Shown here: positions 9,216 through 31,650 of the stretch, piece by piece
Numbering within the stretch: the stretch's first letter is position 1
Layout of the letters: the number at the start of each line of letters is the position of its first letter
Source of the DNA: Candidatus Iainarchaeum sp.
GTDB taxonomy: Archaea > Iainarchaeota > Iainarchaeia > Iainarchaeales > 0-14-0-20-34-12
Assembly: GCA_030649345.1 (NCBI GenBank)
Contig: JAUSKK010000042.1
Coordinates: 1 to 32,000 of the forward strand
DNA: 32,000 nucleotides
Direction of reading: 5' to 3'
Made by a program: the position numbers and the translations under genes
Notes under the pieces: model-generated
Databases searched by the model: none
What the model saw: only the letters and a program-made list of their open reading frames with translations
What the model was told of the DNA's origin: nothing

Positions 9216-12200
9216 CTAACTTTTTCTGGAAACTGCGGCCAACACCGTTATTTTTTCTTTTTTAGCTAAGTCATCAGCTTGCAAGAACTTGTTTTCTTGA
9301 GTGCATTCAGTTGCTGGTTGATAGTATGGACTTTTACAGCTGGAGCCAGCTAAAGTCATGGCTGTTTGTTTTTGTTCGGAAAAATAACAAAATGGATTAA
9401 TTCCAGTGTCTTTTCCGTAAGCATCGCTTTCTTTTGCATAAACTTTTACATCTAAATGGGGTGCGTTTCCTGCTCCTGTTTTTCCTGTTTTTCCAATCAA
9501 GTCTCCTTTTTGGATTAATTGTTTTTCTTTAACTGAAATTTTAGACAAATGATTGTAGGCAGAATAGATTCCGTTTCTATGCTGAATTAATATTGAGTTT
9601 CCAAAACCGTCAGTGTTTTTCTTTAATTTTATAACAGTTCCATCTTCCATAGCATACACCGGCAGGGGTGTTTTGGCTCTAAAGTCTATTCCATCATGCA
9701 CTTTATCTCCTAATTTTCTGTAACCAAAGCAAGAAGTTACAGTTTTGCTGGCAGTTGGAAAAGCAAAGGATAACGACGTGTTGGTTGAATTGTTTTGCAG
9801 TAAACTTGAAATAAATGAACTAATTTCTTTCTGAGTTCCAAACCATTTATTGTTAACTGCCATTCGAACTTTAAAATTGGCAGTTCCAACTGTTCCTGAA
9901 ACTGGAGAAAATGAAAAATATAAAATTTTTCTTCCGTGATCAAAACAAGCTACTAGAGTATCTGGTTTCTCAATCAAGTCTTCTAAATCATTTTCAGAAC
10001 AATCCAGTTCATCCAATTGCCGGACTCCTAAAAAGTTTAATCCGCTGATATTGTAGATTCGTAAATCATTTGAATTATTAATTGCAATTTTGTAAACACC
10101 GTACCTATAAAATGGATTGTTTAAAGTTAATCCACTGAAATTAATTTCGGCAGGTTGTATTTTAGTTACAGGGAAAGATTCTTTACTGTCAATAGCAGTT
10201 CTGGAATTTTTTTCTTTAAATTCATTTAGTTCTTCTTGGGAATTAAAGAAGTCATTAAATCCAGCTAAACTAAAACTAAAGTCTACAGCTTGAGATGACG
10301 TTTTGTTAAGTCTAATTAAACCAAAGTCTTCACAAAGATAAGGTCTATAACCACTCATATTTTCCACATTGGGCGGAAATTTATAACTGCACAATTTTTT
10401 GTCTTTAGAGTCTTTAACTGTTAATTCAAACTCTACAGCGCCTTGAGTTAAAGTAAAAGTATATGTTTCCAATTCAATCAATTTTGCGGCTCCGTTTTCT
10501 TTAAGCACAGTAATTCCTTGAGCATTAATTTGCTTACTTTTTTTTGCATCAGTCAAATCTAAATAAAATCCTAAAGCATTTTCTTGAGTTAAAGTATGTT
10601 CTTGTTCTAAGTAGTCCATAATATCTGGCAAAATTTCTTCGATAGAAACAATATTAGATGCTTCTCGGATGGATCGATCGGAATAATTTAAAGTTACTCT
10701 AAAAAATGACCCTATTTCTGTTTTTAGTTTTTCTAAAACTTGAGTTTCTGTTAAATCTTCTTTAACCAGTTCACCCAATAACCCAGAAACATCTTGAGTT
10801 CCTTCCAGCCCATGGCTTTGAATAATAACTTGACAATCGGTTGAATCAGTTTTCAAATTTTCTGCAGTTGTTTGAATTTCACAAGCCCAAACATAATAAT
10901 TATCAGCATTCGCCACCAATTGATTCCAAGAAAACCAAATTTCATTTTCTTCGGATGCTTCAAATTCAATATTTAATGAAAGTTTTCCTTTTGCGTCTGG
11001 ATTGAATAATTTTGAAATTATAATTTTATTTCCAGACAAAACACAATCAATGACAGTATCGCAGGTTGTTTCTTTTTTGAATTCAATCCAAGCAGAACTA
11101 GATACCAGTTCTTGTTCTTGATTTAACCCATAAACAATAAATCCTAAGACTTTTTCACTAGGATTTAAATTTAAAACATAATTGCCTAATGAATGAACTG
11201 GCTGAATGGCTTGCAAATCTGCTTCAAAAGTTGTGCAATCTTCGAAAGTTTCAATTTCAGAAGTTTGAAGGCATTTCCAAAACTTTAAGGATTTAACTGA
11301 ACTGCCAAGATTAGCTGGAATTCTAACTTTGGCTAAAGCCTTCAATTCATTTAATTCATCTACAGTTACACTAAAGTCTAGAGAATGCGAAACATAACTG
11401 ACATAGTCTTTGCTGTCTGCTAAAATTGTGTCATCCGCTAAATCAGGAGTTCCTTTTGTGTTAATAAGTTCAATTTTAAACAAAGTTTTTTCAGAAGTAA
11501 ATTCTTGTACATCTTCCCATTCGTAATGATCTGCATCAGGATCATAAATTTGATCTTCAAAATAAGTTTCTTCTTCAGTAGTTGAATTTGCTGCTTTTTT
11601 GTCGTATTTGTGTTCTTCACAAAATGTTGCTTCATTTTGCCCTGCAGGCAAATCTTTTGGATAACAATGAATGGCTCTGTAAACTAAATGATCTTTGTTG
11701 ACACTAACAGGTATTGGAAAATTATGTGGATCCCCCCAAATTAAGTGAGCTATCCAATTTGGTTTTTCGTACAATTCTAAAGTAATACTAGCTTTTTCTT
11801 CTTGAACTAATTCCCAGTCTGTGGAAATATTTTGTTTTGCATATTTTTCAGTTGTGGGTGCCTTTGGGCGAGTATAAAACACAATTTTGTATTTCGTGAA
11901 ATTGGTTATTGGAGTAACTGTTACACCTGCAGCAATATCTGCTGGATCAGTGAATGTAACACTTTCAGTATTTACACCTAGAACTTCAGTTGGCCCAGCT
12001 AAATCAATTTGATTGCTTTCTTGTTCACAATTTGTTATATTTTCTTGATCACAGCGCAATACAGTGTAAGCATAATCTTTGTCGGTTGGAGGATTTTTTA
12101 AAGTCCAGTCAATTTTTACTTTGTTAGTTTCCAAACGATCTACAACAAGGTCTTCAATTATTGGTTTTAGAACTTCTGGAGTTTGAACTGCATCTTTGTC

Positions 12201-31650: not shown

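Follow-up and report, generated by a model that had tools for sequence, protein, structure and literature searches.

What would an archaeon do with secreted enzymes that cut murein? SLT/GH23 (family-1 lytic transglycosylase, LT), M23 and Amidase_2 domains are enzyme classes that act on murein bonds, namely the glycan strand, the peptide cross-links and the stem-peptide amide, respectively. Archaea have no murein. We analyzed a stretch of 32,000 nucleotides (here called the window) from a contig that NCBI labels as part of a Candidatus Diapherotrites MAG. Three giant genes on this stretch, A, B and C, between them carry domains of all three classes.

Three giant genes encode proteins with Sec signal peptides

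The initial annotation described three giant, paralogous minus-strand genes, each opening with a Sec signal peptide and ending without a membrane anchor, and this description holds. Genes A, B and C are intact and identical to the NCBI gene models (Table 1). Signal peptides and anchors were judged by a hydropathy scan and by reading of the sequence. All three proteins start with a hydrophobic h-region and an A-x-A-like site, with predicted cleavage at VFA↓VD (A), NSA↓LY (B) and IFA↓ID (C), and a C-terminal hydrophobic segment is absent from each of them. An extracellular location fits their high cysteine content (30 to 40 per protein) and the invariant Cys pair of their repeats. The paralogy is real though distant: the SLT modules are 23 to 26% identical, and the proteins have repeats in common.

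The Pfam search recovered Peptidase_M23 in A and both Amidase_2 and SLT in C above the cutoff. It found none of the wall-binding domains LysM, SH3, PG_binding and SPOR in A, B or C, and at E <= 1 the noncatalytic segments gave a weak CARDB match (C, aa 1069-1123) and nothing else. An exact 8-mer scan, which detects close relatives only, found no relative of C in GTDB representative genomes and JGI metagenomes and, at low sensitivity, no match of A in IMG/VR. In a word-index homology search, full-length C matched itself only and an alignment of the four SLT modules matched nothing.

Table 1. Features of the window, with nucleotide positions, amino acid ranges and the basis of each assignment
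Feature	Amino acids	Positions	Strand	Basis
Conserved flank (MetK, HTH_3+CBS, surface protein, anchored protein)		1937..9055	mixed	Pfam, synteny
Bacterial-type MetK		within 1937..9055	-	Pfam
HTH_3+CBS regulator		within 1937..9055	+	Pfam
Ig-rich TM-anchored surface protein	1454 in total	within 1937..9055	-	Pfam, hydropathy
Anchored protein	187 in total	within 1937..9055	-	
Gene A (MDO8428666.1, "peptidoglycan DD-metalloendopeptidase family protein")	1735 in total	9216..14423	-	ORF
A signal peptide, MRSTLLPVLLFTLIIIVSSPVFA↓VD	1-23	14355..14423	-	hydropathy, sequence reading
A FN3-Cys repeats	142-252, 751-876, 1010-1118, 1141-1267	10623..14000	-	in-window jackhmmer, alignment
A SLT-like module	500-760 (core 548-737)	12144..12926	-	sub-cutoff Pfam, relatives-only HMM, hhalign, alignment
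A Peptidase_M23	1575-1665	9429..9701	-	Pfam (E=1.3e-24), PDB matches, alignment
Gene B (MDO8428669.1, "hypothetical protein")	2004 from ATG (2007 from GTG)	16140..22154	-	ORF
B signal peptide, MNGVRFNLIAVFFLLLFLVSVNSA↓LY	1-24	22083..22154	-	hydropathy, sequence reading
B FN3-Cys repeats, 11 copies	175-278, 277-386, 753-860, 859-960, 962-1075, 1200-1329, 1333-1419, 1435-1545, 1590-1691, 1708-1786, 1868-1970	16245..21632	-	in-window jackhmmer
B divergent SLT-like module	525-744	19923..20582	-	relatives-only HMM, hhalign, alignment
N-terminally anchored protein, upstream of B	203 in total	23467..24078	-	tblastn, gene maps, hydropathy
Gene C (MDO8428676.1, "N-acetylmuramoyl-L-alanine amidase")	2285 from ATG (2291 from GTG)	24793..31650	-	ORF
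C signal peptide, MKPFLRLALVFSILFLFSVSIFA↓ID	1-23	31582..31650	-	hydropathy, sequence reading
C Amidase_2 (AmpD/PGRP-type MurNAc-L-Ala amidase)	62-215	31006..31467	-	Pfam (E=3.3e-15)
C first SLT module (C1)	762-940	28831..29367	-	Pfam SLT (E=6.3e-11), above cutoff
C second SLT-like module (C2)	1504-1621 (whole ~1480-1725)	26788..27141	-	HMM, hhalign, alignments
C FN3-Cys repeats	945-1049, 1255-1342, 1357-1463, 1884-1978, 2159-2283	24802..28818	-	in-window jackhmmer

Catalytic domains and their key residues

Protein A consists of a signal peptide, an FN3-Cys repeat, a linker, an SLT module, further FN3-Cys repeats, an orphan region and a C-terminal M23 domain. The latter lies where the initial annotation had placed it, scores 86.7 bits against a Pfam cutoff of 28.7 and matches 34 M23 chains in the PDB (best value, 2.6e-19). 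In an alignment of A with its closest homologues, nine bacterial M23 proteins, the H-x3-D zinc-ligand motif (H1576-D-G-I-D1580) and N-H1625-L-S with its catalytic His are invariant. However, where all nine homologues have H-L-H, A has P-H1656-L-D1658 in place of the H-x-H motif, whose second His is the third zinc ligand. Asp1658 could still bind zinc. When a chimeric amidase+M23 query was used, all homologues retrieved were M23 domains in ordinary bacterial proteins.

In protein C, the signal peptide is followed by Amidase_2, a beta-rich region, an SLT module (C1), FN3-Cys repeats, a Glu-less SLT-like module (C2) and a further set of repeats. The proposed AmpD/PGRP-type amidase, like the M23 domain found at its initial coordinates, is borne out by a score of 57 bits (cutoff, 26) over profile positions 7 to 130 of 131 and by the presence of the zinc ligands His, His and Asp (H66, H187 and D213) and of the catalytic Glu and Lys (E143 and K211). 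H66 aligns with the His of L-H-Y-T in AmpDh2 (4bj4; E=5e-5), while E143, K211 and D213 align with E116, K162 and D164 of AmpD (1j3g) in local alignments. H187 (R-G-H) was assigned as a zinc ligand by eye.

Protein B comprises a signal peptide, two FN3-Cys repeats, an Ala/Gly/Ser/Pro linker, a divergent SLT module and nine more repeats. No other catalytic domain was recognized in it, and neither Pfam nor the PDB gave a significant match.

Four SLT-like modules had been read by motif across the three proteins. All four match a profile built from eight Pfam-SLT-positive DPANN relatives with the window proteins excluded, at 63.7 (A), 34.4 (B), 64.4 (C1) and 11.7 (C2) bits and hhalign values of 98.1%, 96.1%, 98.0% and 84.4%, respectively. 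Against Pfam SLT (PF01464; cutoff, 21.3 bits), only C1 passes (42.3 bits, at 29071..29376); A stays below at 16.6 bits, and B and C2 have no match. A profile of the four modules gave only a weak match in the PDB, to the c-type lysozyme 6ukc (E=0.31). The catalytic Glu of the E-S motif is present in A (E557, within N-E-A-S-F), B (E550, A-E-S-K-F) and C1 (E772, Q-E-S-N-F). The other motifs occur as GIMQI and AHNWG in A and as GLMHI and GYNWG in C1, and are degenerate in B, which has GLVS in place of GLMQ and SYRYG in place of AYNxG. A single-sequence AF2 model of the B module stayed at an unusable pLDDT of 33. C2 carries Asn1544 in place of the Glu (R-N-P-S-F), keeps GLMQ and has lost AYNxG, and by these residues it is probably noncatalytic. 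The "complete demolition set" of the initial annotation is therefore overstated: the Asn of C2, the degenerate motifs of B and the zinc-ligand substitution in the M23 domain of A leave fewer certainly active sites than the phrase claims.

A search of 1.84 billion cluster representatives detected about 10 relatives of the SLT module. The MAGs that encode the nearest of these stem from independent studies and are all labeled Micrarchaeota, Diapherotrites or "archaeon", and each of these relatives has a signal peptide. A Pace- or Woesearchaeota label does not occur among the 10 profile relatives.

A predicted fibronectin type III repeat

Outside the catalytic domains, most of each protein is made up of FN3-Cys arrays, with 5 copies in A (including a weak fifth at about aa 1329-1367), 11 in B and 5 in C. 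The repeat spans ~100 aa, its Cys pair is invariant in the alignment, and it has no match to Pfam fn3. An AF2 model of B aa 753-860, based on an alignment of 20 in-window repeats, reached a pLDDT of 82 and a pTM of 0.75. The top Foldseek matches of this model are all fibronectin type III domains (probability, 1.0; TM, 0.5 to 0.64; E about 1e-3). As modeled, the repeat is a seven-strand beta-sandwich, a private fibronectin type III domain bearing a Cys pair.

Gene neighborhood and archaeal origin

A DPANN archaeal origin, as initially proposed, is the best reading of the contig on the basis of the NCBI label, a MetK/HTH-CBS gene pair and a five-gene synteny. The divergent MetK/HTH_3-CBS pair occurs in 10 archaeal-labeled loci, including one on a 704-kb Woesearchaeota contig, and in no CPR-labeled locus. 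The syntenic genes, which the window has in common with two SLT-bearing loci (L084 and L085) on DPANN-type contigs of 223 kb and 526 kb, encode MetK, HTH-CBS, surface proteins, the 203-aa anchored protein and an SLT protein. Homologues of the 203-aa protein were detected by tblastn in both loci (1e-8 in L085 and 2e-5 in L084), and gene maps of the two DPANN relatives place them immediately upstream of the SLT gene. This hints at the 203-aa protein as a possible partner of the SLT proteins.

TATA-like boxes upstream of gene starts, another feature pointed out initially, are enriched: TT[TA]AAA occurs at -42..-18 in 7 of 13 leading gene starts, versus 0.6 expected at random positions. Among the neighboring genes named at the outset, the HTH_3+CBS regulator, VapB_antitox (PF02697), PIN and the TM-anchored Ig-rich protein were recovered by Pfam and hydropathy, while DUF3368 was not recovered and UPF0175 remained below the cutoff. 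The window also encodes a Bud32-like kinase, and toxin-antitoxin cassettes are located between the giant genes. Ribosomal, tRNA and other informational marker genes are absent from the window, as are capsid, terminase, integrase and tail genes, and a scan of it for tRNAs and Rfam families found none. The MetK of the window is 73 to 80% identical to that of many Patescibacteria (CPR) MAGs, which leaves a small risk of misbinning.

A candidate outward-directed set of murein hydrolases

We infer, with a probability of roughly 0.6, that A, B and C are distantly paralogous, Sec-exported multidomain peptidoglycan hydrolases of a DPANN archaeon that are aimed at bacterial murein and not at its own envelope. 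This reading is supported by the occurrence of murein-bond enzyme classes in a group of organisms without murein. Counted against it are the lack of a known wall-binding domain, the noncanonical C2, the degenerate B module, the His-to-Asp change in M23, the ~80% identity of MetK to CPR MetK and the known hosts of cultivated DPANN, which are archaea rather than bacteria. The outward-directed arsenal of the initial annotation is retained as the best explanation, given the enzyme classes, the secreted-looking proteins and the DPANN contig, albeit with fewer certain active sites.

After export, the disulfide-bearing FN3 arrays would serve as stalks or spacers, and perhaps as adhesion modules, that keep the catalytic domains at a distance from the archaeal surface to which the proteins may be tethered. 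In A and C, and possibly in B, the SLT modules would cut MurNAc-GlcNAc bonds and generate 1,6-anhydro-MurNAc ends. The AmpD-type amidase of C would remove stem peptides from these products or from the sacculus, and the M23 domain of A would cut peptide cross-links. C2, and perhaps the B module, may bind glycan strands and stand in for a canonical wall-binding domain. If the domains cooperate in this manner, a bacterial wall would be breached or digested locally, for host attachment or access, antagonism, or the harvest of muropeptides.

More tentatively, a conserved DPANN surface locus may have been expanded here into three multicatalytic "reach-out" murein hydrolases on FN3-Cys stalks, an idea we regard as doubtful. 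In that case, a Diapherotrites-type archaeon would be tied to bacteria as an obligate epibiont or predator, and the LT gene would be a vertically kept lifestyle determinant instead of a sporadic, horizontally acquired weapon. Diapherotrites are commonly regarded as free-living or as lacking a known host.

Alternatively, A, B and C could mainly be adhesins or host-recognition fibers, with lysozyme-like modules that chiefly bind bacterial or other glycans as lectins, for attachment and not destruction. This is unlikely in our view. It would suit the Glu-less C2, the degenerate GLMQ/AYNxG motifs of B, the FN3 and other beta-rich repeats that make up most of the mass, and the absence of a canonical wall-binding domain, so that something else must bind; attachment was also proposed by Castelle et al. 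(PMC8204110). However, A and C1 retain the E-S/GLMQ/AYNxG motif set, the amidase retains its zinc-ligand and catalytic residues and M23 retains four of five key residues, and three retained hydrolase classes are hard to account for by binding alone. A substrate other than bacterial murein seems less likely still; candidates are chitin, an archaeal host's pseudomurein or S-layer glycans, and the organism's own envelope at division. The archaeal hosts of cultivated DPANN would agree with it, as would the divergence of the SLT subfamily with its 10 relatives. Amidase_2 enzymes, however, act specifically on the MurNAc-L-Ala amide, and the domain in C has kept the AmpD-type residues. Pseudomurein contains no MurNAc and has beta-1,3 linkages of N-acetyltalosaminuronic acid. 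Although lysozyme-fold and M23 domains can have other substrates and LysM/GH enzymes can target chitin (PMC12352652), three murein-bond-specific classes occur together here.

That the contig belongs to a misbinned Patescibacteria (CPR) bacterium, the proteins being bacterial autolysins or epibiont tools, is improbable. The identity of MetK, which together with the lack of informational markers in the window speaks for such an origin, is countered by the synteny with SLT loci on long DPANN-type contigs. The restriction of the MetK/HTH_3-CBS pair to archaeal-labeled loci, the archaeal labels of all SLT-module relatives, the VapB_antitox and Bud32-like kinase genes and the TATA-like boxes at archaeal spacing also argue for an archaeal source. 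We give the least credence, and very little, to the genes being cargo of a virus or mobile element, encoding lysins or tail-type wall-piercing proteins and not a cellular kit. The M23 and amidase domains do match phage endolysin and tape-measure PHROGs, and toxin-antitoxin cassettes separate the genes. However, these phage-family matches are limited to the catalytic domains, the proteins have Sec signal peptides, virion and integrase genes are absent from the window, A has no match in the low-sensitivity IMG/VR scan, and synteny ties the locus to housekeeping MetK even in distant DPANN.

Comparison with known systems

An anti-murein function is not new in kind, and the novelty initially claimed was overstated, but the combination of enzymes is unusually rich here. 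Extracellular DPANN proteins that contain SLT and reach 3,000 aa, and the hypothesis that they act on bacterial walls, have already been published (Castelle 2021, PMC8204110, which refers back to Rinke 2013 and Castelle 2015; Vigneron 2022, PMC9723730; PMC10936187). A catalogue of peptidoglycan hydrolases from archaea contains M23 and DPANN examples, and two of its enzymes were shown to kill a bacterium (Strock et al. 2025, PMC12352652). In the papers compared here, we found no description of the multicatalytic fusions, the FN3-Cys repeat, the threefold expansion or the conserved locus.

The published DPANN SLT proteins (fam00969, PMC8204110) resemble A, B and C, by their description, in their DPANN origin, size, predicted extracellular site, SLT/GH23 domain and the hypothesis of wall binding or degradation. 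They are reported from Pacearchaeota and Woesearchaeota with the LT domain alone mentioned, whereas the window proteins come from a Diapherotrites-labeled MAG, fuse LT with M23 (A) or with Amidase_2 and a Glu-less second LT (C), and use the private FN3-Cys repeat as filler. The hydrolases of Strock et al. (PMC12352652) are likewise archaeal, often Sec/Tat-secreted and include bacterial-type M23, Amidase_2 and SLT domains. Their catalytic domains were acquired from bacteria, with DPANN as prominent carriers; examples are the M23 + PG_binding_1 proteins of Halogranum salarium. They are small, with two or three domains and a recognized wall-binding domain, in contrast to A, B and C, which have none, exceed them 5 to 10 times in size and combine two catalytic classes in one chain. 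Since a recognized wall-binding domain is lacking, that screen would have missed them.

LT and M23 domains are also found in one chain in bacterial conjugation and phage-tail hydrolases, for example in PrgK, which is of the LytM+SLT+CHAP type, and in tape-measure proteins. These breach murein locally, from outside or across the wall, as the window proteins would, but they do so within membrane-anchored secretion machines or virions, whereas A, B and C would be released as free substrates of Sec, carry FN3 arrays and belong to an organism expected to lack murein.

Published cases for DPANN-bacterium partnerships are based on single SLT domains in MAGs, and we know of no demonstration by cultivation. 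The locus is a sharper test object, with all three murein-bond specificities together in three secreted proteins of one genome, and its active-looking and dead modules side by side provide natural controls. The syntenic neighborhood of the SLT genes can be traced across DPANN lineages, and a hint at the way in which the enzymes may be displayed comes from the FN3-Cys stalks and the conserved 203-aa possible partner. As a divergent type with few SLT-module relatives, the enzymes are also candidates for antibacterial use.

The giant genes of predatory Omnitrophota (bioRxiv 10.1101/2023.11.21.568195) likewise encode very long secreted proteins of ultra-small, host-dependent prokaryotes that are linked to degradation of the wall of another cell, but they are bacterial and far larger than A, B and C. 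The amidase of C has its fold family and the E116/K162/D164 counterparts in common with AmpD, AmpDh2 and AmpDh3 (1j3g, 4bj4 and 4bxd). It differs from them in its low similarity (E=5e-5 at best) and in its place at the N terminus of a secreted archaeal protein of 2285 aa; like AmpD, it would take the products of LTs (anhydro-muropeptides) as substrates.

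Three giant, putatively exported proteins

The window, whose G+C content is ~34% throughout, encodes three giant minus-strand proteins, A, B, and C, listed in the table below with the other features. For each gene, the first ATG ahead of the signal-peptide-like segment was chosen as the start, and the resulting sizes, already given in the initial annotation, are exactly those of the NCBI protein models. The three genes share one contig of 46,407 bp, which belongs to a MAG designated "Candidatus Diapherotrites archaeon", and the NCBI pipeline had named A and C after their catalytic domains. 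Pairwise identity among the three is merely 23-26% (BLASTP), the similar parts being the SLT module and recurring ~100-aa segments.

At each N terminus, a basic residue is followed by ~15-18 hydrophobic residues and an A-x-A-like site (VFA-VD in A, NSA-LY in B, and IFA-ID in C), consistent with the Sec signal peptide proposed for all three proteins. The proposed lack of a C-terminal membrane anchor also held, as no hydrophobic C-terminal segment was found in A, B, or C; such segments are present in the neighboring 1454-aa and 187-aa proteins. The giants contain 30 (A), 33 (B), and 40 (C) cysteines. A 107-aa ORF, with no family match except a weak coiled-coil-like one, stops 9 nt upstream of the ATG of C, overlaps the GTG-extended C ORF, and may be cotranscribed with C.

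Features of the window and of loci carrying relatives (protein positions are marked aa)
Feature	Location	Strand	Size	Details
MetK	1937..3151	minus		bacterial type
1454-aa and 187-aa proteins	4127..9055 (region)	minus	1454 aa, 187 aa	187-aa protein follows the 1454-aa protein
A	9216..14423	minus	1735 aa	MDO8428666.1
A, SLT module	aa 548-737			relatives-only HMM, 63.7 bits; hhalign, 98.1%
A, Peptidase_M23	aa 1575-1665			Pfam E=1.3e-24
Cassette region	14460..16100			between A and B
B	16140..22163	minus	2004 aa from signal-peptide ATG	MDO8428669.1
B, SLT module	aa 525-744			relatives-only HMM, 34.4 bits; hhalign, 96.1%
Cassette region	22211..24770			between B and C
203-aa protein	23467..24078	minus	203 aa	N-terminal membrane anchor
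Direct repeat	24089..24123 and 24759..24793		35 nt	copies 86% identical
C	24793..31668	minus	2285 aa from signal-peptide ATG	MDO8428676.1
C, Amidase_2	aa 62-215 (2285-aa numbering)			Pfam E=3.3e-15
C, first SLT module (C1)	aa 762-940			relatives-only HMM, 64.4 bits; hhalign, 98.0%
C, second SLT-like module (C2)	aa 1504-1621			relatives-only HMM, 11.7 bits; hhalign, 84.4%
107-aa ORF	31659..31982	minus	107 aa	
203-aa homologue, L084	9392..10000		202 aa	directly upstream of SLT gene
203-aa homologue, L085	9409..10023		204 aa	directly upstream of SLT gene
Diapherotrites SLT locus	L001/L002 6600..14800			flanked by toxin-antitoxin-like pairs
P0019	L001 10001..12868			DPANN-type SLT module
Diapherotrites MetK	L001 1..246		837 aa	gene runs off locus

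A divergent branch of the SLT family

Pfam recognizes an SLT domain in C (E=6.3e-11) and, below threshold, in A (E=0.006), while no convincing domain was returned for B. The four regions designated as SLT-like in the initial annotation can nevertheless be aligned with one another. When a profile of these four modules was run against 1.84 billion cluster representatives, only 13 proteins matched at E<=1e-3, three of them from the window. Eight of the remaining ten cover most of the SLT module, and all eight carry a Pfam SLT domain. In at least seven, this domain coincides with the stretch that the profile matched; in P0011, the top SLT segment listed is the N-terminal copy. The MAGs that contain the named relatives are labeled Ca. 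Micrarchaeota, Ca. Diapherotrites, or "archaeon". The other two matches, P0012 and P0017, look spurious, since they are limited to short repeated stretches and lack an SLT domain. An HMM built from the eight SLT-positive relatives, with the window proteins excluded, and hhalign against the relatives' profile recovered all four modules where they had been proposed. These matches place the modules, as predicted members, in a branch of the SLT family that is divergent and confined to DPANN.

In a 12-sequence alignment of the relatives and the four modules, the E-S motif retains its catalytic Glu in all eight relatives and in A (E557), B (E550), and C1 (E772). B retains this residue, but its GLMQ motif reads GLVS, and Ala takes the place of the Gly that is conserved in the third motif. 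In C2, Asn1544 (R-N-P-S-F) occupies the catalytic position, and the AYNxG motif is gone as well. Counted conservatively, the predicted lytic transglycosylase (LT) sites comprise two canonical ones (A and C1), a doubtful one (B), and a dead LT-like module (C2). Among the relatives, P0019 combines the SLT module with a weak, below-cutoff match to GDSL/SGNH hydrolases (E=1e-4). This segment could be an O-acetyl-peptidoglycan esterase-like add-on, a hint that the accessory catalytic domains differ from one family member to another.

M23 and amidase domains

The M23 metallopeptidase proposed for A was confirmed by its Pfam match and by a PDB sequence search that returned 34 M23 chains (top hit, 2.6e-19); PHROG tape-measure and endolysin families match the domain as well. 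The H-x3-D motif and the histidine of N-H-L-S are retained, and H-L-D stands in place of H-x-H, which reads H-L-H in nine of nine close homologues. In LytM and lysostaphin, the second His of H-x-H binds zinc; in A, the Asp is a plausible zinc ligand.

The AmpD/PGRP-type amidase attributed to C is likewise recognized by Pfam, and its closest solved relatives in the PDB sequence search are AmpDh2 and AmpD. The AmpD-type residues H66, E143 (AmpD E116), K211, and D213 (K162 and D164) are retained; H187 was assigned by eye. On the same conservative count, one amidase and one variant M23 domain would stand beside the LT sites.

Fibronectin-type repeats with two conserved cysteines

The recurring ~100-aa segments bear a Y-x-V-x-R-C...C signature and, in an iterated HMM search within the window, number 5 in A, 11 in B, and 5 in C. 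An AF2 model of the repeat, based on an alignment of 20 in-window repeats, is a confident beta-sandwich (pLDDT 82, pTM 0.75), whose best PDB matches are all fibronectin type III (FN3) domains. The first Cys is invariant and the second, ~10 residues on, nearly so, a pattern suggestive of a loop stapled by a disulfide. In 22 retrieved relatives and cluster members, the repeat HMM had no match. The other noncatalytic segments of A, B, and C gave no Pfam match save a weak CARDB one, and none of LysM, SH3, PG_binding, or SPOR was found in the three proteins.

A conserved surface locus with interspersed cassettes

The 1454-aa Ig-rich protein matches Big_13, HYDIN/VesB-like Ig, and NEW3; it carries a signal peptide and is anchored at its C terminus by a TM segment, and the 187-aa protein is also anchored. 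Counterparts of both adjoin the SLT gene in two related loci, L084 and L085, which lie on distant DPANN contigs. The two proteins and the giants make up a predicted conserved cell-surface locus. The 203-aa protein, which matched nothing in Pfam, PHROG, or NCBIfam, has homologues in the same two loci and is a candidate conserved partner of the SLT proteins.

Toxin-antitoxin-like cassettes lie between the giant genes. They contain a GNAT protein, PIN/VapC, a 167-aa protein whose partner weakly matches UPF0175, VapB_antitox (PF02697), and DUF2283 together with a 123-aa protein. PIN/MazE, DUF2283/DUF4258, and HEPN/nucleotidyltransferase pairs border the SLT gene of a Diapherotrites relative in a similar way. 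A direct repeat with a TATA-like AAGCTTTAAAAATAAGTTT occurs upstream of both the 203-aa and the DUF2283 genes, with the DUF2283/123-aa cassette between the copies, as though insertion of the cassette had been accompanied by promoter duplication.

Relation to reported archaeal hydrolases

Castelle et al. 2021 (PMC8204110) described a Pacearchaeota/Woesearchaeota protein family whose members reach 3,000 aa and carry a murein-like LT domain and, citing Rinke 2013 and Castelle 2015, proposed a role in attaching to bacterial walls or in degrading them. Vigneron et al. 2022 (PMC9723730) termed such MAGs "vampiristic", and further surveys report the same DPANN LT observation. Strock et al. 2025 (PMC12352652) found peptidoglycan hydrolases in ~5% of archaeal genomes, DPANN being prominent, tabulated LysM+SLT in Micrarchaeota and LysM+NLPC_P60 with a Sec signal in Diapherotrites, and demonstrated killing of a bacterium by two M23-type enzymes from haloarchaea. 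Their screen demanded a known wall-binding domain, which A, B, and C lack. The idea that DPANN archaea act on bacterial walls is already in the literature; the initial annotation overstated its novelty, and its interpretation is partly supported: the outward-directed anti-murein reading that it offered is the best explanation, judged by domain identity.

In the publications consulted, we found no description of LT+M23 fusions or of Amidase_2 fused to an active and a dead LT in multi-thousand-residue chains, of the private FN3 repeat, of three paralogues in 22 kb with toxin-antitoxin-like cassettes between them, or of a conserved, MetK-linked surface locus that includes a gene for a small anchored partner. 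The locus offers a good experimental handle on DPANN-bacteria interactions and would not surprise specialists.

Proposed role and origin of the contig

SLT enzymes cut the glycan strand, forming 1,6-anhydro-MurNAc; AmpD-type amidases strip the stem peptide and work well on anhydro products; and M23 enzymes cut cross-bridges. C would therefore couple two successive steps, strand cleavage and stem-peptide removal, and A would combine glycan-strand with cross-link cleavage, a pairing also seen in bacterial conjugation and phage-tail hydrolases. The FN3 arrays might serve as spacers or adhesion modules, and the Glu-less C2 is a natural candidate for the absent wall-binding function. Less probably, the giants are adhesins only, act on a non-murein substrate, or are mobile-element cargo; their best reading, with the steps taken from domain identity, is as putative exported murein hydrolases directed at bacteria.

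A further possibility is that the contig was misbinned and derives from Patescibacteria (CPR). It was considered seriously because genes for rRNA, tRNA, and ribosomal proteins are all missing from the window and its MetK is 73-81% identical to that of many Patescibacteria and DPANN MAGs (Micrarchaeota, 81%; Woesearchaeota, 77%). However, a divergently transcribed MetK/HTH_3-CBS pair occurs in 10 archaeal-labeled loci, including a 704-kb Woesearchaeota contig, and in no CPR-labeled one. In addition, SLT-module relatives on L084 (a 526-kb NCBI contig) and L085 (a 223-kb JGI contig) have MetK, HTH-CBS, and large surface proteins of the Ig-like kind no more than ~8 kb away, and tblastn ties five window genes (MetK, HTH-CBS, and the 1454-aa, 187-aa, and 203-aa proteins) to these loci. 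In a third relative, the Diapherotrites MAG, MetK is ~10 kb from the SLT gene. Among 13 leading gene starts, 7 have a TT[TA]AAA element at -42..-18, versus 0.6 expected, a contrast inflated by drawing the expectation from random positions that include coding DNA. Several starts leave no space for a leader, and the elements fit archaeal TATA boxes of leaderless or short-leader mRNAs. PF02697 and a Bud32-like kinase also speak against a CPR source, and the contig is very probably archaeal (roughly 0.9).

The MetK likeness suggests that CPR and DPANN, both ultra-small radiations, have shared the gene recently, and is a pitfall for single-gene taxonomic assignment. The MetK of the Diapherotrites relative contains an intein (Intein_splicing, LAGLIDADG_3).
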